This document shows, piece after piece, positions 1 through 34,245 of a stretch of DNA of 64,000 nt. Positions within the stretch are counted from its first letter, which is position 1. Every line of letters starts with the position of its first letter. The translations under genes and the position numbers were made by a program. The stretch comes from a virus. Lineage: Duplodnaviria > Caudoviricetes. The stretch lies in the IMG/VR virus record IMGVR_UViG_3300028381_000129, positions 2,821 to 66,820 of that record. One strand, 5' to 3'. Below the pieces are notes generated by a model. The model searched no databases, was not told the DNA's origin, and worked only from the letters and a program-made list of their open reading frames with translations.

Positions 1-1
1 T

Positions 2-1681
2 ACCGATGACCACAGCACCCGTGTTGTTGACCCGATGGTCACCAGGGTTCTGGTAGGAATAACCACCATTTTCAGGGCTGGTCAGTGACGGATCGATCCG
101 ACTCCGGCCCATGTTCCTGAACTCGACATGCCGGCGCAGACCATCATCATGGTGCATGTGCATGGTGTGGGCACGGTGACAGCCAGTGCCGGTAATGCCC
201 TTCTCCCGGACATAGGCTCCCTCGAACCGGATCGATCGAGACCAATTTGTGCAGCGAGCCTCGATGATCGTCGGGGTGCCGTCAGGCAAATTGCCGGTGT
301 GGGGCAGGTGGTTGTAAGCCAGAGGCGTGGAGAAGCTAACGATGTTGCCAGTGATCCCTGCAATCACTCGCACTTCATCATTGGACAGCTTGAAGTTGTC
401 CGCATTGTCCTGGACCATTACTCCGGCTGGGTTTGCTGGAGAGCCATTCACGATAGCTGTGGTGCCTGGATACCAGGCGTCCATAATCCGGATAGGACCT
501 GGAACACAGGCAGTTAGAGGGCCGGTATAGGTGCTGTCAGTAGTCGAACGTCCAGCGAAGGTGGTGCTGGTTATTACGATCGTGTCACCGATCCGCCAGT
601 TAGTTGGGATCGTATCAAGAGTGACCCACGTGTTGCCTTGAGCAGGGGCCACCGCAAACTTGGTGAAGGCAGTCTTGTCCTCGCCCCGCATCCGTAACTT
701 GCCCATGGTCATCAGACCGAGCTTGGTCGTTGCTCCTGGATCCCCGGTGCCGAGGAAAACACAGTGGTGACCCGGCGTAGAATCGGCAAACGGATAGCGA
801 ATGGGATCGGCGTCAGTCCCGCAGATCAGACCGCCATGAACCACCTCACTGTCGATGATCATCAGCGTCTGGACATCTGGCTTGATGTTCAGGGTTGCCG
901 TGCCACCGACATGGATCCCCCTTAGGGACAGTGCCTGGCAGGCTGAGACCACAGCGAGAGCGTCGACATCCGAAGGGGAACCAGCAAGGACATTACAGGC
1001 GTTTCGGTAGGCAGCCAGCATCTCAGTGATGCTAGAGTACCCACCGGTGCTCATCACCACATCGAAGTCGACGACGTTGGTTCCGCTGATGTTGGCCAGA
1101 TGGGTGCCACCAGGAACCGTGCCGACATCCCAGACCGTGGGATCACTCCAGTTGCCAGACTTCACCGCTGTGTGAGTAGCCGGGCCAAGACCAGGATGGG
1201 TATTGGTGTCCTGAAGCTGATCATAGATCGCTGTCCAGTATGCATCAGGAATGCCAAGACCAGCATCCCGACCACCTGACCAGTTCGCCAACGGTGCAAT
1301 CATCGGAGTTGGAGCTGGAACAGTGATGACAATCGGCGTCACCAGCGGATTGTTGCTGGCTCCAGGAAGGTTCTCGATCAGGTTGGTCGTGTAGTAGCGG
1401 TTAGCCCCCGAACCATAGGTGACCAGATCATATTCGATCGCCTTGGATCCCCGGACCACCGACGATCCGCTGATCTCAAGACGGTTGTTTTTGGTGTCGG
1501 ACAGCGTGATGGTCGAACCGAGAGTTCTGCCACTGATCAATCCAGCCAAAGTGCTGACAGCCGCCGACTCAGCTAGAGCAAACGTGCCTGTCAGGGCCGT
1601 AAGCTGGGTGGAGCTGGGCGGAACCAGAACCAGAAGAGACCCGGTGCTCGTGGAGCCAGAAAGGTTGATCGAGTGGCGCAA
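2..1681 (-). CDS. G8-domain fibre/spike protein, putative polysaccharide depolymerase (3'-partial, runs off the window edge)
   Basis: Absent from the ORF track. I checked every codon: 560 codons with no stop from TTG at 1681 (AAGGGG upstream) to the window edge. Motifs HTAVKSGNWSDPTVWDVGTVP, PTNWRIGDTIVITST and HRAHTMHMHH..VEFRNMGRS resemble bacterial G8/beta-helix proteins. Confidence 0.8.
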   Translation of the reverse strand, partial: MRHSINLSGSTSTGSLLVLVPPSSTQLTALTGTFALAESAAVSTLAGLISGRTLGSTITLSDTKNNRLEISGSSVVRGSKAIEYDLVTYGSGANRYYTTNLIENLPGASNNPLVTPIVITVPAPTPMIAPLANWSGGRDAGLGIPDAYWTAIYDQLQDTNTHPGLGPATHTAVKSGNWSDPTVWDVGTVPGGTHLANISGTNVVDFDVVMSTGGYSSITEMLAAYRNACNVLAGSPSDVDALAVVSACQALSLRGIHVGGTATLNIKPDVQTLMIIDSEVVHGGLICGTDADPIRYPFADSTPGHHCVFLGTGDPGATTKLGLMTMGKLRMRGEDKTAFTKFAVAPAQGNTWVTLDTIPTNWRIGDTIVITSTTFAGRSTTDSTYTGPLTACVPGPIRIMDAWYPGTTAIVNGSPANPAGVMVQDNADNFKLSNDEVRVIAGITGNIVSFSTPLAYNHLPHTGNLPDGTPTIIEARCTNWSRSIRFEGAYVREKGITGTGCHRAHTMHMHHDDGLRRHVEFRNMGRSRIDPSLTSPENGGYSYQNPGDHRVNNTGAVVIG

Positions 1682-1692
1682 CAGCTGGCCCC

Positions 1693-2841
1693 TTAGACAG
1701 TGATGGTGATGCCCTGCGGACAGATCAACAGCGGCATATTGGCTCGGAAGCAGCTCTCCAGGAGAGGCTCAGCAGCCGCCGAGGTGGCAGCGTCATCCGT
1801 CCACATGCCCCGGAAGCCACCACCACTGGACAGACCCGAACCCGTGATCCGGCCGTAGAACACCGTCTTCTTGCCGGCAGTCAGGTTGGCAGAGAGGGTG
1901 AGACGGATGGTGTCCGTGGTTCCTGGTTTGAGCCCGACACTGGAAACCGTCAGAGGAGTCCCACCGGTTTCGTAGGTCTTGCCGCTGGCACCAATCGCTG
2001 TCGAAGTGGTGCCGGTGTAGACTTCCCAGCCCTTGGTCGGCGTAGTCGGAACCACCAGAGCCCCACCATTAGGCAGACTGACCGTGAGATCGATCGTGTT
2101 GCTACCAGCAGCAGCGACAATGCCGGTGATCTTGGGAAATTGCCCATAGCTGGGACCAACATAAGCACCAGTCGGCTTGCGGTTGTTCTGTGCCCGCCAC
2201 CATGCCCGTGCCCGGGTGCAGACCAGCATTTCGTTATCGAAGTTGGACTGCACCGAATAGTGATCGGTATTGGCTGCGACCGAGGTATCAGGCACTTTGG
2301 TATGGAACGGGTTACCAGACGAGATGAAGCCTAGAGTAGGATTGAGCTCACACCAGAAAAGCTGAGTGATCTTGGCCAGATCATTGGAATTGACCAGATC
2401 CACTGCCATGACCAGGTTGGGGTTGCCACTCACAGTTCGCAGCTGCGAGACCAGCTGGGTCATGCCCTGCATAGCGCGCCAGGCCTGGTCTTCCCCCAGC
2501 TCACCAATATAAGGTGAACCAGTGACCTGGGAGTTGTAGGTCGAGGAGATAGCACCAGCGGTGGGATAACCGGTTTCGCCTTGAAGGAACTCCGGCAACC
2601 AGAACATGCTCTTGTCGGGTAGACTGTTGATAGCGTCTGTCAGCTGCTTGCCGCCAGATCCTGCCACCGTATTCAGCGTCCAAGTGGTTGGATCGACAGA
2701 ACCCATGTCATCAAGGATGGCATAGCTCGGGGACGCCAATGCCGAACCAGCGGTGGCAGCCGTTTCGAGACTCCGTAGTAGGGGTGTGGCCCCACGAGCA
2801 AAGAGAGTGGTTGCTGGGCTTTCTCGCGTAAAATCAACCAT
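1693..2841 (-). CDS. C-terminal part of an SGNH/SASA (sialate O-acetylesterase-like) carbohydrate esterase plus a beta-rich tail
   Basis: ARGATPL (block II-like), FLQGETG (QGE block III) and TDHYS (DxH-like block V) are present. The GQSN block I is missing and sits at the end of the upstream ORF. Confidence 0.6.
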   Translation of the reverse strand: MVDFTRESPATTLFARGATPLLRSLETAATAGSALASPSYAILDDMGSVDPTTWTLNTVAGSGGKQLTDAINSLPDKSMFWLPEFLQGETGYPTAGAISSTYNSQVTGSPYIGELGEDQAWRAMQGMTQLVSQLRTVSGNPNLVMAVDLVNSNDLAKITQLFWCELNPTLGFISSGNPFHTKVPDTSVAANTDHYSVQSNFDNEMLVCTRARAWWRAQNNRKPTGAYVGPSYGQFPKITGIVAAAGSNTIDLTVSLPNGGALVVPTTPTKGWEVYTGTTSTAIGASGKTYETGGTPLTVSSVGLKPGTTDTIRLTLSANLTAGKKTVFYGRITGSGLSSGGGFRGMWTDDAATSAAAEPLLESCFRANMPLLICPQGITITV

Positions 2842-4814
2842 TAACCGATATCCCCGAAGAGCTGAGCTGTCATCAGTGCTGACTGATGGATCCAGTAGTC
2901 AGAACCATCTGCTGACGAGCCGCCCCAGAAACCTGCGCTCTTGGCCAGCGAATTCGACTGACCGATGGCAGCCGTGCCAGTGACAGCTCGGGCAACACCA
3001 ATGCGTTGACGATGGCGGTTCTGCGCCCAGGCAATGATGGTGGCGATGTCGGCATCGGTCGGAGCTGCTCCGGTGATGACAATCTGCTCGTGGTAGATGC
3101 CCCGGAAAAACGAGCCAGCAGCGCCAGCAATGTTGTTGCCGATCGCCAGACGAGACGTGCCAGTGTTGTCCCGGAGCGTGCAGGTGATGGCATTGCCGGC
3201 CGAGTTGATGAAGGTCTTGACCGTACCTGCAACCTGGCCACTGACACCAGCTGCTGCTGAGGGAATTGCTCGACGAATGACGCAGCAAGTCTGAGCTGTC
3301 GTTGACCGATCAGTCGCTTCCTTGGCAACATAGCCACTGGCGGCACTGTTGTTCCAGGCGTTGACCCCGATGCAGCCAGGATTAGGCCCGCCAGGGCCTG
3401 TTGCCAGCGGTGCAGTAGCGGTGCCGACTGTCAAGAAGTTGTTATTGCCACCGCTTTCCGTGGTGTTGGAACCAAGGAAGGAGGGAATGGAGTAGGTAGT
3501 GGTCGTCTTGGCACTGCGAGCTCGATCGAGCGTGAAGATGTCAACAACCGTGTAGGGAGTCGATGTCGTCAGGGCGATGCCGGTACCAACGGCAGTGGCT
3601 AGGCCACGCTCGTTGTCCTCGAACATCAGGCCACTGATCTTGCCAGAGACATTCTTGAGGAAGATTGCACCATTCTGCCGGACGCTGCCGGCAGCGATAG
3701 CCACCATGTCAGGAAGAGCACCAGCACCGGTAATCCGGTTCTTCAGGGTGCTGACCCGGTTGGCACGGCCACTGGCATTGGCAGCTGTCGCTGTCATGAT
3801 GCCAGCCGTAGCTAGGGTCACCTTGGCGCTGTCATCGCTGGTTGCATCGTACCAGGCCACATAGGTGGCACCGGGAGTAGCCAGCGTCGGCAGGGTATCT
3901 GCCTGCTGACCGACCGTGATGGTGACCGTGGTCACACGCGGAGCACCCGAAGTCGGGGTCTCGGTCAGCGGGAAGGTGTAGGTGCCGTAGAGCGTCGGCG
4001 TACCCGTAATGGTCCGGGCCGCACTGTTCAGCGTCATGCCATCAGGCACAGTGCCGGTGATGGTCGTGCCTGCTGTGGCGCTGAGGATGTTGATCGTCGA
4101 AGCCGTCCCGACATTGGCTGTCGTCGCATCGAGGGTCAGCGCATTCAGGGCAGCGGTATCATCGTTGGTGACGGTGCCGAGGAAGCTGCCAGTGGTGATC
4201 GTGGCACCATTGGTCGGATTGGCCAGGGTGACCGTGAAGCCCTCGTCCGGCTCATAGGTGGTATCGCCCACCACATTGACCGTGATCGTCTTGGTGGTGT
4301 CACCTGGCGCGAAAGTCAGGGTTCCGGAAGGCAGTACACCACCGGAGAAGTCAGCTGCACTGGCCGGATTGGTTCCAGAACCGGTAACCGCCCAGTCAAC
4401 CGCATTGGTGCCACTGGTGTCGGTACTGCGGGTAACGGTGAACACGAATGCCGTGGTCCCCGAATTGCCTTCAGCCTGGGTGGCACCAGACGAAGCAATC
4501 GAGAAGCTCGGGATCAGAACCGGCACCGGACCCACACCCGTGACGAACAACGGATAGGTCATGGACAGATCGCCGAGATCTTCCTTGATCAGCGCCTTCT
4601 GGGTCGCATTGCCCAGAGCACTGGTAGCAGAGAGGGTGTCACCACCGGTCAGCGAGTAGTTGGCATTGGAGCCAGCCGCCAACGAAATCACCGATGAGGA
4701 ACCAAGCAGGTGAGGTAGCCGGATCAGGTTGCCGGTGGCGGTCGAATCGACAGAAGCATAGCGGGCTTTCGGCCTACCAGCACCGGATCCGTTGAGACCG
4801 ATCGAGTCCCGCAT
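2841..4814 (-). CDS. Multidomain fibre/spike protein: Calx-beta, putative Ig, lectin/LamG-like, and the N-terminal block of an SGNH esterase
   Basis: Start corrected to ATG 4814 (TGATG overlap with the upstream gene). Classic Calx-beta (AEGNSGTTAFVFTVTRS...GTLTFAPGDTTKTITVNVVGDTTYEPDEGFTVTL), Ig-like segment (PDGMTLNSAARTITGTPT) and IGQSNS near the C-terminus. Confidence 0.75.
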   Translation of the reverse strand: MRDSIGLNGSGAGRPKARYASVDSTATGNLIRLPHLLGSSSVISLAAGSNANYSLTGGDTLSATSALGNATQKALIKEDLGDLSMTYPLFVTGVGPVPVLIPSFSIASSGATQAEGNSGTTAFVFTVTRSTDTSGTNAVDWAVTGSGTNPASAADFSGGVLPSGTLTFAPGDTTKTITVNVVGDTTYEPDEGFTVTLANPTNGATITTGSFLGTVTNDDTAALNALTLDATTANVGTASTINILSATAGTTITGTVPDGMTLNSAARTITGTPTLYGTYTFPLTETPTSGAPRVTTVTITVGQQADTLPTLATPGATYVAWYDATSDDSAKVTLATAGIMTATAANASGRANRVSTLKNRITGAGALPDMVAIAAGSVRQNGAIFLKNVSGKISGLMFEDNERGLATAVGTGIALTTSTPYTVVDIFTLDRARSAKTTTTYSIPSFLGSNTTESGGNNNFLTVGTATAPLATGPGGPNPGCIGVNAWNNSAASGYVAKEATDRSTTAQTCCVIRRAIPSAAAGVSGQVAGTVKTFINSAGNAITCTLRDNTGTSRLAIGNNIAGAAGSFFRGIYHEQIVITGAAPTDADIATIIAWAQNRHRQRIGVARAVTGTAAIGQSNSLAKSAGFWGGSSADGSDYWIHQSALMTAQLFGDIG

Positions 4815-5086
4815 CAGTCGGTCAGCCCACAGGCAAAGGTGCAGAGCTGGGTTTTCGCCCGGACCCAGATGTGGGTGTTCGTGCCGGTGATGTCCTGGCT
4901 CGGCTGAAGCAGCCAACCAGACTGATCATCAGTAGGCTCCGTGCTGCTAGCCGAGAAGAATACCAGCAGTTGTCCAGGACCCTTGCACTGAAGGTTGGTC
5001 GTTGCCCCACCCAGCTCGGGGTAGATGGTGGTGATGTCAGTCCACTTCAGCGTCGATGCCGGCAGATCAATCTCAGACTTCGCCAT
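4814..5086 (-). CDS. Small 90-aa beta-rich protein, candidate spike base/adaptor
   Basis: First gene of the minus-strand fibre operon, translationally coupled to the fibre gene. Function is inferred only. Confidence 0.55.
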   Translation of the reverse strand: MAKSEIDLPASTLKWTDITTIYPELGGATTNLQCKGPGQLLVFFSASSTEPTDDQSGWLLQPSQDITGTNTHIWVRAKTQLCTFACGLTD

Positions 5087-5325
5087 TTTTCAATTCACCC
5101 CGATGCAAACTGGGGTCTGGCTACCATGCATGGGATTTTGAGGCAACTGAGGTGAGTCTAACACCGTCTAAATATGGCTTCCGGCCCACTCAAGAGGATC
5201 AAACCCTTTCTTTGGTTTGTCTAATCACGCGCTAAAGGTGGCTTAAGCAAGGTTGAGGTGGACAAAACCCGAAAACTTACGCATAAGAACGCCAACTCAC
5301 CCTAACCCCACCCGCAGGAAACATC

Positions 5326-20566: not shown

Positions 20567-20612
20567 CCACCACACGACTACCTAACGACTACCAGATGTC
20601 ACCCCCGTGACA

Positions 20613-20658
20613 GCTCCGGTCAGCCTTTTCCTGGGTCTCCAGGAGGGGTGACCGGAGC
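20613..20658 (+). promoter_or_regulatory. Long stem-loop containing the TCAGCCTTTTCCTGGGTCT motif
   Basis: GCTCCGGTCA...CCTGG-GTCT-CCAGG...TGACCGGAGC nested pairing. Confidence 0.5.
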
Positions 20659-20684
20659 CTTCGGGAACCAAGGAAAGGACTAGC

Positions 20685-20909
20685 ATGAGAGACCTTCAGG
20701 GCCGCTCATATCTCACATCCGCAGAAGCAGCTGTCGGGGTCGAGGTGGAGACTGATGGCGACTTCACCTGCCGAAAGCCCCATCAACGATCCAAAATTGA
20801 AGCTGATGCGGATGGCGATCTATTCATCCAGTGCGATCATGGTCAGCACCTTCTCGGTGGTCAGCTCTCCAATGATAGCACCCATTACAAGGGGGTTTAT
20901 CGTGTCTGA
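20685..20909 (+). CDS. Small hypothetical protein, 74 aa
   Basis: AAGGA SD; overlaps the start of the AAA gene. Confidence 0.55.
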   Translation: MRDLQGRSYLTSAEAAVGVEVETDGDFTCRKPHQRSKIEADADGDLFIQCDHGQHLLGGQLSNDSTHYKGVYRV

Positions 20910-21660
20910 GCAACAAGACACTGACGAGCAGTTCGAGTTCAACGATCAGATGATCCTGATCGGCGGTGTCTCGGGTGCCGGCAAATCTGCCGCGCTCCGC
21001 AACATCCGTAACCAGGATCGCTGGATCTACATCAACACCGAGGCGGGCAAGCGTCTGCCGTTCCGCAACCAGTTCATCAATGCCCGAGTCGACGATCCCT
21101 GGCAGGTCTACCATTTCGTCGACGACGCGATCAACAATCCCGATGATGTCGACGGCCTGGTTATCGACTCTGCCACCTTCATGATGGACATGTTCGAGAG
21201 CCAGTACGTTCTCGGCAGTTCCGACACCATGAAGGGCTGGAGCAACTACGCCCAGTTCTGGAAGAACCTCCTCCAGAAGAAGCTGGTCCAGTTCGGCAAG
21301 CCGGTGGTCATCATCGCTCACGTCCTTGAGGTCTACGACGAAGCCTCGATGTCGATGAAGCGGTCGGTGCCCATCAAGGGAGCGCTGAAGAACCAGGGTG
21401 TGGAAGCCTACTTCTCCACCGTAGTTGAGGCCACCAAGATCCCGATCAAGGACCTCAACGACTACGATCAGGATCTCCTGCACATCAGCGAAGACGAGGA
21501 AGATCTCGGCTTCAAATATGTGTTCCAAACCCGTTTGACCAAGGAGTCGATCGGGACCCGTATTCGTTCGCCCATGGGGATGTTCTCCAAGAAACAGACC
21601 CACATGGACAACGATGTTCAGCTTCTGCTGGACCACCTGGCGCGGTTCTACGGAGCCTGA
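20902..21660 (+). CDS. AAA ATPase (Sak4/AAA_24-like, N4 gp44-like)
   Basis: GVSGAGKS Walker A, YINTEAG, VIDSATF Walker B, VIIAH. GTG start after AAGGGGG. Confidence 0.85.
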   Translation: MSEQQDTDEQFEFNDQMILIGGVSGAGKSAALRNIRNQDRWIYINTEAGKRLPFRNQFINARVDDPWQVYHFVDDAINNPDDVDGLVIDSATFMMDMFESQYVLGSSDTMKGWSNYAQFWKNLLQKKLVQFGKPVVIIAHVLEVYDEASMSMKRSVPIKGALKNQGVEAYFSTVVEATKIPIKDLNDYDQDLLHISEDEEDLGFKYVFQTRLTKESIGTRIRSPMGMFSKKQTHMDNDVQLLLDHLARFYGA

Positions 21661-23789: not shown

Positions 23790-26700
23790 TCAGTCGAACA
23801 AATTGACCCAGGGATTGAGAGCATGAGCGCGGAAAACCTCCTGGGGTCCGATCGACCAGCCGAGATTACCCTCCAAACCAGTGGTGAGAAGGTTGTCCTT
23901 GATCGGTAGACCGACAGTGCCGAAACCACTGGGCGTCGGTGCCATCCCAGCCAGTAGCATGTGCAGGGGATTACGCCGGAGTGTGGACAGGGCAACTTTG
24001 ATCGACTTCAGCTTGTAGTCCCAGAACCAGGTCATCCCGATCCCCGAGAGATACCCACGGAAGCGACCCGGAAGCCGATCGTAGTTGATGTACTCTTCGG
24101 TGATCGTCGCCAGGGCAGCTTTTCGATCGACACCCTGACGTTTGGTTAGGTCATCATAGAGGATAGCCTTGGCCAGCATGTCACCATAGTCCACCGACTT
24201 CTGAAGACCCTTGAACAGAGCCGTGTCCTTGCTGATGATCGCATAGCGACCAGCCGTCTTGACCGCCTCAGGCAGCTGGGAAACCAGGTGCTCCAGATAG
24301 CCATTGAGCTTGCCCTCAAATAGGCTACTCTCCTGACGGTCCACGCGTTCGGTGCTGATTGCTGAGAACTCGCCTGCCTGGATCAAAGGCCAGATGCTCA
24401 GCCGCTTGTTTGCATCCGAGATCGAGGTCATCTCGGCCTTGATCGCACGGGTCCTGGGCAGGTTGTTCCGGGCAGCCCGAAGATCGGCTTCAAGATCGAT
24501 CTGGCGTAGCTGGTTCTGATGATAGATCCGGATCTCCGCTACCTTCTTGGGCAGGCTCCTGGCGATGTTCACCAAAGGCACACCCCGGCTCGACAGCTGG
24601 TAGATGTTCGAGATCATGTTCGCCATCGGCACGATGATCGAGCGAACGACGATCGTGCTCTTGGCGTCGGCCACCACATTCTGGATCAGCCGTTCGCTGG
24701 TCACCAGCCGGCGATAGGCATCCTTGCCAAACACAGCCGTGGCAATGTTGACGGCCATGCTCTGGGTCCGAGGATCCAGACGGCTGACACCAGTCCAGGA
24801 ATCGCCCACCGAAGCAGTGCGATAGCCGATGGTGTCATTGACCATATCCTTACGGACCATGAAGCCCTCACCACCGAAGGTGTCCTTGATTAGTTTGTGC
24901 ATCTGAGGAGTGAACAGCGAGACCGCATCGGCGATGATCGGATCCTTGTGATTCTTGGGATCGAGCAGATCGACAAACTCATCGGACCGGGTGTCGTCCC
25001 GCTCATTCCAGATGTCGTGCAGGCGTTCGACCAGAACCTGGTTGAACTGATCGGCCGAAGCCTCTTCAGCCTGACGACCACGCCAGATCCCCAGCACCTT
25101 CGAGAGATCGGTCTGCTGCTGGAGCCGGCCCTTCTGGACCGGATCCACCGACCGCTCGTAGGCAACGACATCACCATCTGCATCGAACACCGGCAGCAGC
25201 TGCTCCACTGCCGGGTTGGCCTGCATCGAACGCAGCCTGACCGTGATCTTGCGGACCTCGGCAGCGTCAGTGATTCGGCCTGCCTGGTTCATATCGAGGC
25301 TACGGCCAGTGACCGGATCGACACCCCAGAAGGTGCGATGGACGTTCTGGGCAATGCCTTGGTTGAACGGCGACCTGGCGGTCAGTGGGGCGAAATAGTA
25401 GCCCTTACTGCCCCGGCCACCTTCCGCTTTCGAGCCGACATAGCTCGCCACCCGAGTGTAACCCCGAGCCACCAGATCAGCATAGTCTTTGTCGTCAGCC
25501 ACCCGCAGATCGGAACCCGAAGTAGTCTCCGTCGGGACATGACCCTTGTAGCGGTTGAGCTGACCGACGGTGCTGACACCCTTCTCAAACTCACCCCGAT
25601 GCTGGCCGACCAGGTAATTGAACACGAAGCTCATGCCGTCAGCTTCCTTGGCAGCCAGTTCAGCCATATCCAGCCGGGTCTGCACCGGAAGCTTCTCTAG
25701 GGCATAGAGCGAGGTCAGACGGTCGATGGCCTGGACCAGCTGACGATCCGGCTTCTTGCGCTGATCGGCTTCGAGCTTAGGCACCTCATTGAGCAGCCTG
25801 GCAATGGCGTCAGCGTTGCGCAACAGGTTCTTCGAGGCCTTGCCGCTGCTCATATACTCAGCGAGCTCCTGAGCCTTCTGCTGGATCAGGGCAGCTCGTT
25901 TCGGATCGAGCTTGGCGATCTGGGCTTCATGCTTGCCGATCTCGCGGGTGACATGACTGGCATCCCGCAGGAGGGTCAGCACACGACTGGAACCAAGGGA
26001 GGAGAGAGCCGCTAGGTCAGTCTTAGCCATGCCATGGTAGAGCGCAGTCCATTCCTGTTCGGACAGGGCACGGGAGAACTGGGCAGCAACCTTCTTGGGC
26101 AGCTCTTCACGGAATGCCTGACGCTTTTGCTGAGTGAATGCCCGGGTAGCCTTGATCAGATCGTAGATCGGAGCATTGGCCTTGGTGCGACCAGTCACTT
26201 CGTTCCACAGCTCCCGAACCGGGGTCCAGACACTGAGCTTGTTCAGGGTTGAGGTGATGCTCTCGCCGGCGTTGTCTGCCCGCTCGTCATTGAGTGCAGA
26301 CGAGATCAGCTGACCGGTCCGAGCGACGATTTCGACCAGCTTGTTGTCGGTGTTGTCGGCGATGTCTTGGAGTTTGTCAGCCGCCTTGCCGGTGAGATCC
26401 TGCATCCCACCAACCAGCACGTCATTCACCTTGTCGAGGCCATTGCCCACCGGAGTGGCATACTGGTTGATCCACGTCTCCCGTTCCTCCTGGCTTTCGG
26501 CCAGTCGGGCGGTGAGATCGTCGATCGCATGAAGCATGGTCTTGGCTTTGTGGTCGCCAGCGAGAACCCGGCTCATCCGATCGAGTACACCAGAGGCCAG
26601 ATCGTCGATGTGATTGTCGAGACTACCGCCACCGGTGCGCTCACCCTTGGGCAGACCCAGTTTCTCGATCACCTCGCGGAAACCATCATGGACGTTGGCA

Positions 26701-29700
26701 AGAGCCAGGAAGGCCGGCAGCATCGTCGATCGGCCGGCACTGTCATTGCCGGTGAAGGTGTTGCCGTTGATGAAATTCAGCTTCTGGTTGGCATAGTAGA
26801 GATCTGCCGGATCGGTCGAAGCCGGCTCGGCCATGAGATCCTCGGCCTTCAGGTTGTCGAGGACATGGCGATAGAGATCCTGGACCCGAGCCTGGGCATT
26901 GGGATCGAGACCGTGATCGATACCGAAGGTGGTCACCAGGGTCTTGAACAGCGAAGCTTCCTGCTGGGTCAGATTGAATCCGCTGGCCTGAGCGGCTTTG
27001 AGGACCTGCTCGGCGATAACGTGCATGGCATTGTGGGCATCATCCGCCTTCACCCGGGCAGCATCTGCTTCAACCGGAGTGCGCCTTTGACTGGCCCGTT
27101 CCAGAACACCATGCAGGCGGTCAATGAACTTGCCTTCCAATTTGGATAGCCGCTCGTCCTGACCGTAGCCACGGGCATGGAACTGAGCCAGACGGGACAG
27201 ATCTTCGGCATTACCGAGCACCGGCAGCTTGGCCTGCATGATCGCCAGCGTGTTGAACCGCAGGTTGGAATAGATGTCGTCGCCAACCGAAGGAGCCAGA
27301 CCCCTGCGCCAGATCAACTTCTTGATGGCTTCCAGAGCTTTGCCGATGATCAGGGCGAGGGGGTTCTTCACCTTGGTCTGGCGTGCAAGATCAGCCAGCT
27401 TCTGGTTGGACAGCACCCAAGCCATGAACTCATTGACCCGGGCAGCCTGACCCAGCACCTGATCGGGATGGTTCGAGGCCTGCTCCATGGCAGCCAGAGC
27501 ATTGAGGAACTCGGTCAGGGCGTCGGCATCCTTGATGTCAGCAGGCGAGATCGCCTCAAATTCTGCCATCAGCTTTTCAATCCGGCCCATCGCATCTGTG
27601 ATGGCCGTTTCAACTTTGCTCCCGGAAGCACGGTTCTGATTGGCGAAATAATCATAGACCCGTTCGATCGTGGCAGCGTGGACCAGCTCGTGTGCCAGAG
27701 TTTCTGGATCGGTCGAGGTCAGGTAGATCTGCTGGATACCCGGCAGGGCAACACCCTGCCGATCCGTCAGATCAGGAATGGTCTGGCCACTTTCTCGGGT
27801 GTGAGCCTGAAGCTGCTCAGCTGAACCAAGCAGGATGGACCAGCCCTTGGTGGTCAGGGCATTAGCGGCATCCCGGATCAGAGCCCGCTGCTGGGCAGGA
27901 ACATCGAGACGATCAGCAACCTGGCGAAGCTCATCGCGGGTAATGGTCCGGACACCATGCTCATCGACAGTGCCGAGGTTGGTCAGTTGTTCCGGCAGCT
28001 CACGGGCGGGGGCATTGTGCCTGGTTCCAGACTTGTCCAGCAACTCGTTAAGCCGGGTAGCGGCCTCTACCGGATCAGAAGAAATCTCGGTCTTGTCCGA
28101 CACCGTGAACGGTGCGGCGGCACTGGCCATGTGATCGACTGAGAGATTGGCTTGAGCCAGTGCAGCCTTGCGGGCAGCAATCTCGTCAGCTGAGTTGGTG
28201 ATCCGGTCATGGAGACCGGCAACCATCTCAGCGAGATCGCTGGCTTCAAGAAGATCAGAACCCTTGCCGTTCAGAGCTTCACTGAGATCAAGACGCATCT
28301 CGTCGATCATCTCGAATGCCTTGTTGGCACCGGTGGAGAGGACGAACTTTCCAAAGGCATCAGCCACAGCTTTGACGGGGTTTTCCATCCAGCCCTGGTG
28401 GACAGCCTGATTGATCCGGCCGCTGAAATCCTGGGCCTTGTCGAGTGGCAGGTTAATGCCGTCGAACACTGGCAGGACACCTTCGAGAGCCTGTTCCCCG
28501 GTCATGGCGTTGAGGATCATCTGGCCGTCACCAGTGGCGATCACCAGGTAGGGAATGCCTGAAACACCCGGATTTTCCGGACCATAGACATAGCCGTCGG
28601 ACTTGATCCGCTCAGCAAAGTCAGCCCCGAAAGCAGAGGTCTCGACATCGGCCTGAGCCGAGCCACCGACGAAGATCAGCTGGGAACCAGTGTTGATCAT
28701 CGGGTGGGTCTTGATCAGCCCATCGAAGATCTGTTGGAGCTCGTTCTGGCTCAGGAAGTCACGAGCCAGAACCCCATCAGCACCACCTTCCCGGTTGGCG
28801 AGCTCATCAGCAATCGCCTGCTTGAAGGCATACTTGAGGTGGATTGCCTGAACCTGGGTGGCCTGACGGACCAGATCAGCGTTAGCCAGAGCCGGAGCCA
28901 TCAGGTTTTCGATCGAAGCTCGTAGAGGCCTGGCGAACAGCTGGTGGACGTTGGCCGAGAGGTTCTCGATCATCGCTGGCTGCATGGTGTAATTGACCCC
29001 ACGACCAGTGTTCTGGTTGGTCTCGCCGCGAAGGTTCTTGGTGTAGAGCTTGCCCTCGAATTGCCGGACCTGCTGGGTGGTCAGCAGCTCCAGATCCTGC
29101 ATGAGCTGGGTATCGATCTCGCCATTCGACATGGCCTCGTAGAGACCATCGACCATCGCTTTGGTAATCTTGCTGGCAATCCCCCTGGTTCCAGAACCAT
29201 AGACCGTAACGGTCAGCGGGTTCTTGGCAATGCCACGCTCGAACTTGAGCTTGCCGTCCTCATCGAACTGGGCGTCATCGAGTAGCTTGGCCATCACCCG
29301 CTTCAGGGCTTCATGGACGGCTGCCACCTTGGGATCGCTGATCGATTTGGTCAAATCAGCAACGTGAGCTCGCAGTCGATCGGTAGCCAGCTGGTAGAGG
29401 TCGCTGGAGTTTTTCTGAGCATAATCAGCCAGAGAAGTCGGATTGGAACCGGTGAAGAGACCACCGCGGTTCATCCGGTCCACCCATTCAGGAGTAAACT
29501 GGCCACCGGTCAGGTTCATCATCGCATTGATCGGACCGTCGGTGACACCATCGGCTTCAAGATAGAGCGGTGTCTCGAAAGCCTTCCGCTCTTCTGGTGT
29601 GGCTTCCAGGAACCGGGCATACTCGACCAGAGCATGAATGGCACCAGGCGAGAGCTTGTTGCCGAGCAGCTGCTTGAGGTGATCGAGATCGCTGACTTCG

Positions 29701-32700
29701 AGATCGAGCGGGTTAGTCCCATTTTCATTGGCCACCCAGCCATGCAGAATTTCGACGGCCGGAGCCAGTTTCCCAGACAGGAGGTTCGTGGCTTCTTCGA
29801 CGGAAGTATCCGGCGAAAGTTTGTGGACCTTCACACCCAGATGCTGGGCAATCGCCACCATGAAGTTGCGGTAGTGCTGACCCTGACGATCGGACAAATC
29901 GAGTTTCGACCAGGTAGGGAGGAGCACTTCACGAGTGAGCTTGCTCGCCTGCGGATTGTGTGCCCCGATCATCTGGAGACGGCCTACCGAGGTGATGCCG
30001 TGCTCGAAGTAGACCGGCATGTCATGGGTGTCGGAACCGTCAGCCTCAGCCTTCAGGGACATCTCGGCAACCAGACCCTGGATGTTTTCCCAGGCACCGG
30101 CCATCGTCCGGTTGAAGCCGTCGATCGCCTTGGCGTGGTTGATGTTCAGACCCTCGGTATTGGGATCACCAGCGCCGAATAAGTTGAGCAGCAGACCCTT
30201 GTTGCCAAGCATCGAGAGGAACTGGAGCATCGGCCGGCTGAGACGGTATGCTGTCTTCTGGGCGTTGGTGATCGCTTCGCGCTGCTGAGGCTGGAGCTGC
30301 ACCGGAGAACCATGGAGCTGATTGGTAGCCACGTTCACTGGCGGCTTGCCGATATGCCGGGTCACCTCAGGCTCAGGACGGACCAACCTCTCGATCGCAT
30401 CCGGGGAAGCCTGGAGCGACTTGAACAGCTCCTGGGCTTTCTCGCTCGTGTTGAGCACGAAACGGGAATAGGTCTTGCCATCGATCTTGGTCGTTTCGAG
30501 CTTGATCAGCTTGGCATCTTCCAGAGATTGCAGCACCTCGGCCGACAGGCTTTCCGGGACACCCTTGGTGTATCCTTCCGGTGCCGACCGATCGGGAGAC
30601 ACCCCCCAGAACTGGGTGATCTTGTTGGCCAAAGACCGCTTGGCGTCATCTTTCCAGACACCATCGTTGAACCAACGAACCATGTCCTCATCGACCAGAC
30701 CCTCATCGATACCGAGGATCTTGGCGACAGCTTCAGCATCACGGTTCGAGCTCCTTGCCGACGTGCTCACCAGCCACTGAAGGCCAGCCAGAGCAGCAGC
30801 CTGCTGGAGCGTGGGATTGTAGGCCAGCTTGCCATCGACGTTCTCGACGATGTTCAGCGCCTTGTTCTGAAACCAGCCATTGACCTGGCTATCACCCGGG
30901 ACACCCTTGGTCAAAGCCTCAGCAAAGGTCATGCCGTGCTTGTCGATGGTCTTGGCCAGCTGAGCCTTCAGCCGCTGGTTCATCGTGTCGACGACCATAC
31001 CGGCATATTTCAGATAGCGGGCATAGCTGTCCGAGAGCTGACCAGGCAGACCGGTATCCGACTTCAGCGCATCGGTGACGAACTTCACCGGATTACTCTC
31101 GGTCAGGATGTTCGATCCGGACTTGGCCAGCTTGAACGCCTTGTGGAACCAGTTCTTGACCGGACCATCTTCAGAGCCGACCAGGTTCGGGAAAGCCTCA
31201 GCCAGCGTCTTGGGAGCTACGGCTTCCTTGGTTCCGGTTTCCGTGACTCCTTGCGTGTCAGAGGCACTTTCGGTTTCGGTCTTGGCCGGTGCGGGACTTT
31301 CCTGCCCGACATCCTGTTGGACATTGGTTTTGGTCTCCGTGGGCTTCTCCGTCACCGGAGCGTCGGCCTTGCTGGTCTCAGCCGTGCTCGCAACAGGCTT
31401 CGGCTCCGCCTTCGCCTGTTCCTGCGCTGGCTGGACCTCGGCCTTGGGCTCCGGTGCTTGGGGCTTGGTTTCGGGAGCAGTGGTGGTCTCCGTGGAGCCG
31501 GAAGTCGCCTCCGATTGCGGGGGCGCAATCGGAGTCTCCAGCGCCGGCTCCACTGGCTTTTCGGTCTTGGTCGCTTCGGACCGGGCTGTTGCCTTGGCTT
31601 CGCGGATGAACCGCTTCATCACTTCTTTGGCTGGAGCAGCCATGATCCTAGGATCCATTTCAGCCAGCTTGATCGGTTCGACACCCAGTTCCGGATTACC
31701 GGAAGCCAGACGGTTGGCCATATTGCCCAACGCCTTGGCATTAAGGGCAGTATCCTGAGCCAGTTTGACCGAACCCTTATGGGTCGGATCGAGCCAGACA
31801 CCAGGGGACTTGTAGACCTTTCGGGTCTGCGAGTTCAGCGCCTGGAACGGGGTCAGATTGTCCTTCGAGGCGTTGCCGGCAGCCATGCTCTGCTTGAGGG
31901 CCTCAACCTTGTTCTGCATGTGCTGTGCGAACTTCATCATGTCTCGAAGACGTTCAGCCGCCAGAGCCTTGTTACCCACCGACAGTGCGTCCATGATCCC
32001 CTTGAAGTGGCTCGATGCCGACTTCTCGGCGACATCCTCACCGTTTTCCTTGTGCAGGATTTCGTGGGTCACCAGATCCTGCGGGGTGAGATCGAGCTTG
32101 TTCCGCTCAGCTTCGTTGGCCTTGGCAATCTCCTTGATCGACATCCCGAAGTAGAGGGCTTTCTGAGCCAGATCAGAGAGGGCCACCTTGCCGTTGCGGG
32201 CGTGTTCCAGAACCAGCTTGGCCAGATCCGGACTGACCGCTTCCGGGTTGGACTGAGCCACGGAAGCCAGGGTCTGCACAGCCTGCTGACCACGAGGGGT
32301 CTGCAAGGCCTCTTCGCTGATATCGGCTTCCTTGAGTGCCTGAGCCCGCTTCACCGCTTCCAGACGGGCAGCGTTGACGGCCGGGTTCTCGAACACACCG
32401 TCGTAGAACAGGTTTTCGTGCTGCCTCAGCTGGGCGAGGGCAGGGTGGTCATCCGGCAGAACCGTGACCGCAGCACCGAGATTGTTCTCGATCTGGGGAC
32501 CGAGCTGGTTGGCAACATCGTTGATCCAGGTCGCAGCTTCCAGCCGGTGATCCGGATTGGCGTTCTTGTCGGTGGCAATCTGGGCAGCCTGATGCAAGGC
32601 ATCGATCCGGTTGGTGGCCAAAGCGATCTTGTCCCGGACTTCCGGGGAGAGATTGGTGTTGTCGAGCTCAGCCGGATCGAACGCGATAGAGCTGTTCAGC

Positions 32701-34178
32701 CGATCGAGATGTCCCCTGATCTGGTTCGCTTCAGCCTCGGGAACCTTGTTGTCAGCCAGAGCCTGTTCGACCTGGGCCTGAACCATAGGAGCCTGAGCAA
32801 CGGTCTCGTTGGCCGCTGCTGACAGGTTCTCGGCCGATACCGGAGAGGCTGCCTGGCGATTGGACTGGATGTTGCCGGCCCGGGCGTTGACGGCCCCAAT
32901 GGCAGCCTTTCCAGCCGCCTTGGCTCCGTCAACAATAACACCGCCGCTGGCGATCGCCGCTGCGTTGAAGACGTGAGGTGCTTGGGCTGCACCAGCTGAA
33001 CCAAGACCAAACAGGGCACCCTGGCCGGCCTGCTCACCCACCTGATCGAGAAGATCTTGGTTCTCATTGGCATATTGCCGAACACCGAGGTTGCTGGCGA
33101 GCTGACTGGTTCCAGATTGAAGACCCTCTTCAACACCCTCCCTAAGCATGGTGCCAGCGAGACCGGTGCCAGGGACTTTTGCGAATGGATTACGATGGAA
33201 CTCTGGGATGATCGTGCCGGCGGCTGCTGCCACAGGAAACTGAGTGGACGCAGCAAGAAGACCTGCACTGTTGGCAATCTGCTCTCGGGCAGCTTCCGGA
33301 TCAGCACCCTGTTTGATCAGATCGGCATACTCGGGGGAGTTAGCCATGAGATCGTCATGGCTCATGCCCTGCACCTGCTGGACAGTTTGGGTGTAAGTGC
33401 CTGCTGCTTCCTGGGCACCGATCACCGCAGGAGCTGCAAGCTTTGAACCAACCTGGGCAGCCTTCAGTGCAGCTGCTCGGGAAATCACCCCATTCCGCAA
33501 GAGACCCATGATGGCCTTGCCACCAAGTACCTCAGCGCCCCTGATTAGGGGACCACCCGTAGCAAGGGAACCAATACCCTGAGCAATACCGTCCTGAAGG
33601 GTAGAGCTATCTGATGCCGCGTTCTTTGCGTTATCCAGAAAATTGCGGCCGATCTTCTTTAGGATCGGCAGCGTGCTGCTGTCTCCGGGGGCTTCCTTGT
33701 CATAAAGAGCCTGGTTCTGCTCAGTCGACAGCTGATTGAGTGTCCCCGTTACTCTTTGATGAGCGCCGAGACCACCTGACTGGCTGTCCTGGATCCGCTT
33801 GGTAGCATCTGCAATGACCTCAGATGCCCAGTTACCGGCAGGTGCGTTGACCAGACCCAGTTCGAGAGCACCGAGAGAACCAACAGAATTGATGACCCCG
33901 ACGCCGAGGCTCTTGACGGCATCGGTGACTTTCTGGGTTGGGTTACGATAAGCTGTGTCACTGTTGTTGAAGCGGTTACGGCCGATCGCTTCGTTAATCA
34001 TCGAGCTCAACGGATTATCGTCAACCACTCGCGGTTGGTAGGGAATGCCCAACCTTTTCGCGGCACCAGCGTTGAACGCCTCCTGCTGGAGATCCTGAGG
34101 CGTGGGTTGACCGGGAGTAGGGCTGGCCTGAGTGCTGAAGTTCGAGAACTGAGCAAGGACTTCAGCTGCGTTGGCCAT
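23790..34178 (-). CDS. Virion-encapsidated RNA polymerase (N4 gp50-like vRNAP), about 3460 aa
   Basis: Size; motif A LEADGVTDGP, motif B AKNPLTVTVYGSG, motif C VFDG; HELVH zincin-like motif; no Cys found on manual scan. GGGAG SD before ATG 34178. Confidence 0.97.
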   Translation of the reverse strand: MANAAEVLAQFSNFSTQASPTPGQPTPQDLQQEAFNAGAAKRLGIPYQPRVVDDNPLSSMINEAIGRNRFNNSDTAYRNPTQKVTDAVKSLGVGVINSVGSLGALELGLVNAPAGNWASEVIADATKRIQDSQSGGLGAHQRVTGTLNQLSTEQNQALYDKEAPGDSSTLPILKKIGRNFLDNAKNAASDSSTLQDGIAQGIGSLATGGPLIRGAEVLGGKAIMGLLRNGVISRAAALKAAQVGSKLAAPAVIGAQEAAGTYTQTVQQVQGMSHDDLMANSPEYADLIKQGADPEAAREQIANSAGLLAASTQFPVAAAAGTIIPEFHRNPFAKVPGTGLAGTMLREGVEEGLQSGTSQLASNLGVRQYANENQDLLDQVGEQAGQGALFGLGSAGAAQAPHVFNAAAIASGGVIVDGAKAAGKAAIGAVNARAGNIQSNRQAASPVSAENLSAAANETVAQAPMVQAQVEQALADNKVPEAEANQIRGHLDRLNSSIAFDPAELDNTNLSPEVRDKIALATNRIDALHQAAQIATDKNANPDHRLEAATWINDVANQLGPQIENNLGAAVTVLPDDHPALAQLRQHENLFYDGVFENPAVNAARLEAVKRAQALKEADISEEALQTPRGQQAVQTLASVAQSNPEAVSPDLAKLVLEHARNGKVALSDLAQKALYFGMSIKEIAKANEAERNKLDLTPQDLVTHEILHKENGEDVAEKSASSHFKGIMDALSVGNKALAAERLRDMMKFAQHMQNKVEALKQSMAAGNASKDNLTPFQALNSQTRKVYKSPGVWLDPTHKGSVKLAQDTALNAKALGNMANRLASGNPELGVEPIKLAEMDPRIMAAPAKEVMKRFIREAKATARSEATKTEKPVEPALETPIAPPQSEATSGSTETTTAPETKPQAPEPKAEVQPAQEQAKAEPKPVASTAETSKADAPVTEKPTETKTNVQQDVGQESPAPAKTETESASDTQGVTETGTKEAVAPKTLAEAFPNLVGSEDGPVKNWFHKAFKLAKSGSNILTESNPVKFVTDALKSDTGLPGQLSDSYARYLKYAGMVVDTMNQRLKAQLAKTIDKHGMTFAEALTKGVPGDSQVNGWFQNKALNIVENVDGKLAYNPTLQQAAALAGLQWLVSTSARSSNRDAEAVAKILGIDEGLVDEDMVRWFNDGVWKDDAKRSLANKITQFWGVSPDRSAPEGYTKGVPESLSAEVLQSLEDAKLIKLETTKIDGKTYSRFVLNTSEKAQELFKSLQASPDAIERLVRPEPEVTRHIGKPPVNVATNQLHGSPVQLQPQQREAITNAQKTAYRLSRPMLQFLSMLGNKGLLLNLFGAGDPNTEGLNINHAKAIDGFNRTMAGAWENIQGLVAEMSLKAEADGSDTHDMPVYFEHGITSVGRLQMIGAHNPQASKLTREVLLPTWSKLDLSDRQGQHYRNFMVAIAQHLGVKVHKLSPDTSVEEATNLLSGKLAPAVEILHGWVANENGTNPLDLEVSDLDHLKQLLGNKLSPGAIHALVEYARFLEATPEERKAFETPLYLEADGVTDGPINAMMNLTGGQFTPEWVDRMNRGGLFTGSNPTSLADYAQKNSSDLYQLATDRLRAHVADLTKSISDPKVAAVHEALKRVMAKLLDDAQFDEDGKLKFERGIAKNPLTVTVYGSGTRGIASKITKAMVDGLYEAMSNGEIDTQLMQDLELLTTQQVRQFEGKLYTKNLRGETNQNTGRGVNYTMQPAMIENLSANVHQLFARPLRASIENLMAPALANADLVRQATQVQAIHLKYAFKQAIADELANREGGADGVLARDFLSQNELQQIFDGLIKTHPMINTGSQLIFVGGSAQADVETSAFGADFAERIKSDGYVYGPENPGVSGIPYLVIATGDGQMILNAMTGEQALEGVLPVFDGINLPLDKAQDFSGRINQAVHQGWMENPVKAVADAFGKFVLSTGANKAFEMIDEMRLDLSEALNGKGSDLLEASDLAEMVAGLHDRITNSADEIAARKAALAQANLSVDHMASAAAPFTVSDKTEISSDPVEAATRLNELLDKSGTRHNAPARELPEQLTNLGTVDEHGVRTITRDELRQVADRLDVPAQQRALIRDAANALTTKGWSILLGSAEQLQAHTRESGQTIPDLTDRQGVALPGIQQIYLTSTDPETLAHELVHAATIERVYDYFANQNRASGSKVETAITDAMGRIEKLMAEFEAISPADIKDADALTEFLNALAAMEQASNHPDQVLGQAARVNEFMAWVLSNQKLADLARQTKVKNPLALIIGKALEAIKKLIWRRGLAPSVGDDIYSNLRFNTLAIMQAKLPVLGNAEDLSRLAQFHARGYGQDERLSKLEGKFIDRLHGVLERASQRRTPVEADAARVKADDAHNAMHVIAEQVLKAAQASGFNLTQQEASLFKTLVTTFGIDHGLDPNAQARVQDLYRHVLDNLKAEDLMAEPASTDPADLYYANQKLNFINGNTFTGNDSAGRSTMLPAFLALANVHDGFREVIEKLGLPKGERTGGGSLDNHIDDLASGVLDRMSRVLAGDHKAKTMLHAIDDLTARLAESQEERETWINQYATPVGNGLDKVNDVLVGGMQDLTGKAADKLQDIADNTDNKLVEIVARTGQLISSALNDERADNAGESITSTLNKLSVWTPVRELWNEVTGRTKANAPIYDLIKATRAFTQQKRQAFREELPKKVAAQFSRALSEQEWTALYHGMAKTDLAALSSLGSSRVLTLLRDASHVTREIGKHEAQIAKLDPKRAALIQQKAQELAEYMSSGKASKNLLRNADAIARLLNEVPKLEADQRKKPDRQLVQAIDRLTSLYALEKLPVQTRLDMAELAAKEADGMSFVFNYLVGQHRGEFEKGVSTVGQLNRYKGHVPTETTSGSDLRVADDKDYADLVARGYTRVASYVGSKAEGGRGSKGYYFAPLTARSPFNQGIAQNVHRTFWGVDPVTGRSLDMNQAGRITDAAEVRKITVRLRSMQANPAVEQLLPVFDADGDVVAYERSVDPVQKGRLQQQTDLSKVLGIWRGRQAEEASADQFNQVLVERLHDIWNERDDTRSDEFVDLLDPKNHKDPIIADAVSLFTPQMHKLIKDTFGGEGFMVRKDMVNDTIGYRTASVGDSWTGVSRLDPRTQSMAVNIATAVFGKDAYRRLVTSERLIQNVVADAKSTIVVRSIIVPMANMISNIYQLSSRGVPLVNIARSLPKKVAEIRIYHQNQLRQIDLEADLRAARNNLPRTRAIKAEMTSISDANKRLSIWPLIQAGEFSAISTERVDRQESSLFEGKLNGYLEHLVSQLPEAVKTAGRYAIISKDTALFKGLQKSVDYGDMLAKAILYDDLTKRQGVDRKAALATITEEYINYDRLPGRFRGYLSGIGMTWFWDYKLKSIKVALSTLRRNPLHMLLAGMAPTPSGFGTVGLPIKDNLLTTGLEGNLGWSIGPQEVFRAHALNPWVNLFD

Positions 34179-34245
34179 CAACAAACTCCCGGATAGAGGT
34201 CAGAGACCTAGCATCTATCGCCAGTGAGTTGAAGAGTGCGTTTGG

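Follow-up and report, generated by a model that had tools for sequence, protein, structure and literature searches.

A small jellyroll gene and two fibres with a common N-terminal peptide: a probable plug-and-socket appendage cassette in an N4-like soil phage

The stretch of DNA that was analysed (hereafter the window, 64,000 nucleotides (nt) long) comprises bases 2821-66820 of the 66.8-kb IMG/VR contig IMGVR_UViG_3300028381_000129, whose completeness is estimated at 91%, and belongs to an uncultured N4-like phage (Schitoviridae) of soil. At its beginning lies a cassette, encoded throughout on the minus strand, that is made up of a small gene and two fibre genes with similar N-termini. The small gene (coding sequence 4817-5086, stop codon 4814-4816) encodes a protein of 90 amino acids (aa) from an unannotated phage family of small jellyrolls and will be referred to as the socket gene. 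Its stop codon overlaps the ATG of the first fibre, fibre A (4814), in the sequence TGATG, i.e. a case of translational coupling, and the first ten residues of that fibre, the plug peptide MRDSIGLNGS (4785..4814), begin on the A of this upstream stop. Fibre A consists of an N-terminal open reading frame (ORF) of 657 aa (2841..4814), which starts MRDSIGLNGSG, and a C-terminal ORF of 382 aa (1693..2841). A TAATG stop/start junction (2839..2843) divides a putative SASA/SGNH-like O-acetylesterase domain between the two, the second ORF holding the rest of this domain and a C-terminal beta domain. Fibre B (1203 aa; 1..1681, i.e. its first 560 aa) runs past the window start and is found in full at L002:893-4501 of the complete contig; it begins 11 bases past the stop of the 382-aa gene, at a TTG (1681) with a Shine-Dalgarno-like stretch (AGGGG) ahead of it, and its frame reads MRHSINLSGST, of which MRHSINLSGS (1652..1681) is the plug peptide. 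On the other side of the socket gene, a spacer of 239 bp (5087..5325) separates the cassette from thyX, which is transcribed divergently, and is presumed to be the promoter region of the cassette; a consensus scan of this spacer yielded no sigma-70-like site, and when the cassette was scanned for promoters and terminators nothing exceeded the shuffled expectation. The positions of the ORFs, as well as the two N-termini, are as given in the original prediction.

That prediction also held that the two fibres match at their N-termini and are unrelated elsewhere, which agrees with the comparison of the sequences. After the Met, 6 out of 10 residues match, a number not reached in any of the 40,755 N-terminal pairs formed from ORFs of the window (the maximum being 5, in 18 pairs), and BLASTP of fibre A against fibre B returned no other significant similarity, the N-terminal pair alone having E=6.8. 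The anchors of the window plugs are I/V at position 5 and L at position 7, followed by Gly/Ser.

The association of small gene and peptide extends well beyond the window. Twelve independent genomic contexts of the socket family were retrieved, 11 of which have a downstream gene. The protein encoded by that gene begins [IVL]-[DNG]-[LF]-x-(x)-[GA]-G in 10 of the 11, and its start is found at, or at most about 12 nt from, the stop of the small gene, again in 10 of the 11 (junctions being TGATG, GTGA and similar, with a gap of 12 nt in L070 and L071). Examples of such starts are MRRSVNLAGG, MHGIDLRSGAG, MARTIDLSGAGG and MRKINLGAP, and furthermore MSNIDLRG, MKVLDLTAPGG, MSRWIDLTAGGG and ..APLDFRGQNG; the hydrophobic positions that are conserved in the peptide across 10 cassettes are only two in number. 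A Tat or Sec signal was considered as an identity for the motif and rejected by inspection, as most members do not have a hydrophobic h-region after it.

The phages that carry the cassette are of different types (N4-like podovirus, Mu-like and E217/Pam3-like) and the surroundings vary with them. In a second N4-like contig (L003) the small gene is again divergent from thyX, and it overlaps a gene of 854 aa that encodes He_PIG and an SGNH esterase; in the myovirus-type contigs L004 and L005 the cassette follows the lysis genes and a canonical tail-fibre gene is encoded separately; in the Mu-like contig L075 it follows Mu-type baseplate genes and occupies the tail-fibre slot directly behind a homologue of Mu gp48. 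Further settings are provided by L070, L071, L073, L074 and L077, among which L070 and L077 have the cassette after lysis-type genes. None of the sampled cassettes lies beside a capsid gene. The downstream bodies are mutually unrelated and include SGNH esterases, a SASA-like esterase, a G8-related protein and proteins of no family; the payloads in L003, L005 and L070 match Lipase_GDSL_2 (SGNH/GDSL esterases), and on the basis of these sequences such cassettes appear to carry an O-acetyl esterase more often than any other cargo.

Fusions and a negative control complement the picture. In proteins of 145-354 aa the socket domain is found N-terminal to a fibre-like extension, and as this is the usual place of a virion-anchoring domain it favours a role in docking; the second gene past one such fusion starts MANLSLINLGSA. 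In the negative control, a contig that contains the esterase body of fibre A and no socket gene, the protein starts MNRRTQGSG and the motif is absent. Moreover, residues 19-121 of fibre B are 43% identical to the shaft of the fibre in the myovirus-type cassette L004. Because of the contexts, the fusions, the control and the shared shaft together, we view the arrangement as a mobile two-part cassette, in which small gene and tag move as a pair and payloads are swapped. Two arrangements are notable. At L162:95-4236, a fusion of 308 aa is followed by a gene of 595 aa and then by a gene of 473 aa with the tag-like start MANLSLINLGSAANDGTGDPGR. In L075, a gene of 156 aa immediately upstream of the socket gene (L075:4520-4990) starts MRDFTGVSGASGG, which is closely similar to the plug of fibre A, MRDSIGLNGSGAG, and tag-bearing proteins are therefore encoded on both sides of that socket gene.

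The socket protein belongs to a family whose members are 88-92 aa long (alignment A1), and its motifs include QxKG and GTAAHIW. It has no sequence match in Pfam, PHROG, NCBIfam (E<=0.1) or PDB, and, single chance-level hits aside, neither the protein itself nor 27 family members match the tail-adaptor and fibre-anchor families of Pfam and PHROG. The AlphaFold2 model, for which the 27 homologues were used, is a jellyroll of 7-8 strands (pLDDT 95.1), in line with the earlier description of the protein as beta-rich, and its best structural matches are small jellyrolls and double-stranded beta-helices, a likeness of fold class only; structural relatives of ~90 aa are also present in BFVD. A search of IMG/VR for related loci with A1, the window protein or P0009 gave nothing usable, and a narrower alignment led to one locus. 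The N-terminus of the socket protein, MAKSEIDLPAS (5053-5086, minus strand), itself fits a loose form of the plug motif, the family consensus being MA-x-T-x-x-D-V; judging from this resemblance, the tag of the fibres might mimic the first strand of the socket. The D/N/G position of the peptide was also compared with the QNK/QCK motif of the socket, for which ten pairs are too few to establish covariation, and L074 breaks the pattern. A co-fold of four copies of the 90-aa protein (A1) with residues 1-40 of fibre A (A4) had ipSAE values of 0.02 and 0.01, a result that counts neither way on binding.

In the case of fibre A, the 657-aa ORF contains a Calx-beta domain (aa 116-205) and a He_PIG Ig-like domain (aa 231-301) according to Pfam, after which aa 307-657 are 57% identical to aa 20-364 of P0160, a single protein of 746 aa encoded in another phage contig. 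The 382-aa ORF is 55% identical to aa 367-746 of the same protein, which thereby spans both ORFs without a gap at the junction. What had been taken for one large fibre gene is hence present as two ORFs that align to one protein. The split is probably real and not a one-off assembly error, because an independent contig of low depth (about 2), namely one of 160 nt from a second rhizosphere sample (X2, 2742-2901), has the same TAATG junction with 0 differences; as its cause, a genuine split, recoding at this site or recent pseudogenisation are conceivable. As for the activity, the serine block of an esterase (IGQSNS) is found near the C-terminus of the 657-aa ORF, and FLQGE and NTDHYS are found in the 382-aa ORF, all of them conserved in P0160, and the Atlas clusters nearest to the 382-aa part are SASA (PF03629) esterases (score 0.90). 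There was no direct Pfam match for the esterase of fibre A at E<=0.1, so that the label esterase, as assigned originally, is carried by motifs and by look-alike clusters.

Fibre B, with its TTG start, comprises the plug, a shaft that is cadherin-like and a large body that is related to G8. Homologues occur in Sphingomonas, Erythrobacter and Gemmata, and one of these (39% identity) carries PF10162 (G8) in its precomputed annotation. Fibre B itself matches no Pfam family at E<=10 except for a chance hit and falls outside PF10162; the earlier G8 label hence stands through that one homologue, and by this sequence relationship fibre B is possibly a divergent G8 protein.

The N4-like nature of the phage, which had been proposed before, follows from several features: an ORF of 3464 aa (23790-34184) corresponds to the giant virion RNA polymerase, the major head, portal and terminase proteins have PHROG matches of N4 type, the characteristics of Schitoviridae including gene order are present, and the closest cultured relative, Sinorhizobium phage ort11 (genus Huelvavirus), has a major capsid protein with 77% identity to that of the window phage (40793-41983). 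Rhizosphere metagenomes hold DNA that is near-identical to that of the window phage, and Sphingomonadales or Rhizobiales of the rhizosphere are suggested as hosts. The ORF at 47661-49220 (minus strand), which had been taken for the tail fibre, has no PHROG match and no match to a tail-fibre family; its translation from the only early Met reads MKKLAPLFLILSALLVTPVQASS and resembles a Sec signal peptide, which is odd for a virion protein. In ort11 (L081), two large spikes of the late operon, gp80 and gp82, have a common N-terminus of ~60 residues (MTQLPL..AIPRFK.NEERVDKLVNGT), a docking element that is longer than, and different from, the 10-residue tag of the window; there is no cassette adjoining the thymidylate synthase gene of ort11.

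We consider it probable, with some reserve, that the 90-aa gene and the two fibres constitute a plug-and-socket appendage module. The jellyroll would then be the socket on the side of the virion, be it a base or an adaptor, to which both fibres would dock via their first ~10 residues, i.e. two hydrophobic anchors and then Gly/Ser. The payloads would be enzymes acting on surface polysaccharides, where fibre A is predicted to combine an O-acetylesterase of the SASA/SGNH type with a Calx-beta/Ig shaft and fibre B to be a G8-related protein that probably binds or cuts glycans. A single socket gene would in this way serve for the display of two alternative enzymes. The whole would behave as a mobile accessory unit, which adjoins thyX, away from the late operon, in the window phage and is placed behind lysis or baseplate genes in the myovirus-like contigs. 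In this respect the idea of a small base with two fibres and a docking peptide, as put forward originally, now has a good comparative foundation in the anatomy and family of the small gene, its recurrent pairing with the motif, the fusions and the exchange of payloads; the physical binding, the oligomeric state and the attachment to the virion are inferences.

The precedent that inspired this idea is the head spike of the gene transfer agent of Rhodobacter capsulatus (RcGTA), in which Rcc01079, a jellyroll of 84 aa, forms a pentamer on the capsid pentamers and grips one Rcc01080 fibre via residues 2-10, IALGLGLGL (PMC7296036). The base is also known as GhsA and the fibre as GhsB, with structures in PDB entries 6TB9, 6TBA, 6TSU and 6TUI.

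Several observations weigh against a plug-and-socket module, or against its link with the RcGTA spike. A comparison by hhalign of A1 with a 27-member alignment of the Rcc01079 family (A2) gave a probability of 0.3%. The socket family has no cultured member, in that tblastn with three family members found no match in 50,697 phage records. In L068/L069, the context that lacks a downstream gene altogether, the small gene comes after three tail-fibre genes and no motif-bearing gene follows, and the protein encoded downstream in L071 has an N-terminus (MAFDAASYGAG) that is a poor fit to the motif. Only 3-5 residues form the conserved core of the motif, and a loose regular expression for it also matches internal start codons at background level.

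Given a virion-attached module, capsid vertex and tail are to our minds about evenly balanced as its location. Placement on the head, which we entertain tentatively, would have the socket protein form pentamers on the five-fold vertices of the capsid, as Rcc01079 does, such that fibres A and B make a reversible first contact with capsule or lipopolysaccharide, separate from the receptor-binding proteins of the tail. Gene layout, size class and fold class are the same as in the RcGTA cassette and in that of phage RcapNL (see below), and in both the window and L003 the cassette is not part of the block of tail genes. In L004, L005, L070 and L077 it is found behind the lysis genes, which is also its place in RcapNL, and the first two of these contigs have their separate canonical tail fibres. 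In addition, a few fibres that are found with true Rcc01079-type bases have starts that look intermediate (MLIGLNLKL, MFLGINLRLGR). Nevertheless, homology to Rcc01079 is not detectable, the cassettes have no capsid gene as a neighbour, and the mere two anchors of the peptide rule out the five-point star as the mode of binding. Solved Schitoviridae capsids, moreover, are reported to have their decoration proteins at quasi-six-fold positions, with the esterases on the tail (PMC11654681).

It is about as possible that the socket protein is a tail-mounted adaptor and that fibres A and B are podovirus tailspikes docked by their common N-terminal peptide, after the model of the branched or adaptor-based tailspike systems of SP6/K1-5, KP32-like and G7C-like phages. 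The large esterase-bearing proteins of the characterised N4-like phages G7C, Moo19 and B2 are tailspikes (PMC11654681). The late operon of ort11 has three spike genes of 630-700 aa, two of them with a common N-terminus, where the late operon of the window phage has only genes of 167 aa and 514-519 aa without detectable similarity to the ort11 spikes; in L075, furthermore, the cassette is itself in the tail-fibre slot. However, the two N4-like contigs have the cassette at a great distance from their tail genes, a canonical tail fibre is already available to L004 and L005, the known adaptor families show no similarity, and a tail binder of 90 aa would need to fit the tail machines of podovirus, Mu-like and E217/Pam3-like phages alike.

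An improbable explanation without display on the virion is that the small protein serves as an assembly chaperone or partner subunit of the enzymes, with the conserved N-terminus as a recognition tag; as a variant, the enzymes might act as free depolymerases that are released upon lysis. Such a role would be in keeping with the proximity of lysis genes in several contigs and with the fact that no part of the module matches a family of structural proteins. In the case of the known fibre chaperones, the gene lies downstream of that of the fibre and the action is on the fibre C-terminus. Here, the small gene lies upstream and the tag is N-terminal, i.e. the opposite arrangement, and fusion of the domain to the N-terminus of fibre-like proteins is unsuited to a chaperone; the long Ig, cadherin and Calx-beta shafts are, moreover, typical of displayed fibres. 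That the two N-termini match by chance or through a preference in translation initiation, with no functional link to the 90-aa gene, is highly improbable, as the shortness of the conserved core and the BLASTP value of the window pair are outweighed by a match that lies above all null pairs and by a motif that recurs in 10 of 11 contexts, although the bodies are unrelated, and is lacking where there is no small gene.

If the fibres do dock to the socket in the way proposed, the 90-aa family and the ~10-residue tag would amount to a portable rule by which any enzyme could be mounted on a virion, in phages of both podovirus-like and myovirus-like type from bacteria of soil and rhizosphere, and would explain the movement of depolymerase and esterase payloads between unrelated phages. 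For annotation, the consequence would be that a small jellyroll gene followed by M-x-x-x-[IVL]-[DN]-L-x-G marks a displayed enzyme. It would furthermore be a second, independent example, beside RcGTA, of fibre attachment by a peptide in a socket, and, were the module located on the head, the occurrence of enzymatic head spikes would extend beyond gene transfer agents and the relatives of these.

Comparable principles of attachment are found in several systems. Penton bases that bind the tail peptides of fibres are present in adenovirus and, in the form of P31 with the spikes P5 and P2, in PRD1. These viruses differ in being non-tailed and of the double-jellyroll lineage, and the structural scores of the 90-aa model are within the range expected for any small jellyroll, i.e. 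they indicate no specific relationship to adenovirus or PRD1. Another such system is that of the tailspike adaptors of podoviruses, for instance the SP6/K1-5 adaptor with its two tailspikes, the second receptor-binding proteins of KP32-type phages with their short conserved N-terminal peptide, and G7C gp66/gp63.1. The window cassette resembles these in having two different, putatively enzymatic spikes (one a predicted esterase), a short common N-terminal element and a separate small protein or domain, and in the swapping of payloads between phages. Their adaptors are larger, however, and have recognisable tail-binding domains encoded among the tail genes, whereas the candidate adaptor of the window is a jellyroll of 90 aa without a family match and far from the tail genes.

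The comparison with RcGTA was made by way of phage RcapNL (JQ066768), through which the base family was accessed. Its base of 85 aa (20588-20845) matches PDB chain 6tb9_E3 with E=3e-30, and the fibre gene (20845-21279), which starts MGLGLGIGLGL, overlaps the base gene; the cassette closes the late operon and is preceded by lysis-type genes. A hidden Markov model built from A2 recovered RcapNL and found nothing in the window or its contig, and a search of the 90-aa protein against PDB chains including 6tb9_E3 (phmmer and profile search) found nothing at E<=10. Among the matches listed by Foldseek and VIA-align for the structural model, 6TB9 chain E3 and 8CJZ chain h are absent. A search of genome contigs with the back-translated start of the RcGTA fibre, MIALGLGLGL, gave 61 loci, all of them unrelated, and Rhodobacter capsulatus was not among them. 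The description of the cassette as GTA-like is thus valid as an analogy of layout and not as membership of the same family.

True Rcc01079-type bases were retrieved from 80 IMG/VR loci, about 70 of which have a called downstream ORF. Many of their fibres open with an alternation of hydrophobic residues and Gly, as in MIGVGVGLW, MLGLGFGLAG and similar starts, to be compared with MGLGLGIGLGL of RcapNL, and BLASTP of 12 fibres from cassettes of the window family against the about 70 Rcc01079-type fibres revealed no common bodies. At six loci with true bases (L122, L123, L133, L134, L159 and L161) the downstream ORFs, of 82-101 aa, start MLIGLNLKLPRP or MFLGINLRLGRF, peptides whose appearance lies between those of the Leu-Gly star and the I-x-L tag found in the window. 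There are also clear differences, in that one base would serve two fibres in the window, and in that the peptide of RcGTA is a (Leu-Gly)x5 star while that of the window has two hydrophobic anchors and Asp/Asn; because the latter keeps only these positions, the five-point-star mode of binding cannot apply as such. It is a possibility, and not one on which we would insist, that the 90-aa proteins are a second family of capsid-vertex spike bases, independent of or diverged beyond recognition from that of RcGTA. Phages of any tail type, such as the N4-like podovirus of the window, could then carry exchangeable enzymes that modify polysaccharides on the head by means of the two-anchor plug, and the one base would be competed for, or shared, by two enzymes. 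What the window cassette, RcGTA and RcapNL have in common is a gene for an all-beta jellyroll of 84-90 aa that lies immediately upstream of, and overlaps, the gene of the fibre; an N-terminal fibre peptide of ~10 residues in which hydrophobic and small residues alternate, in front of fibre bodies that vary; and a position of the cassette outside the core structural block or at the end of it.

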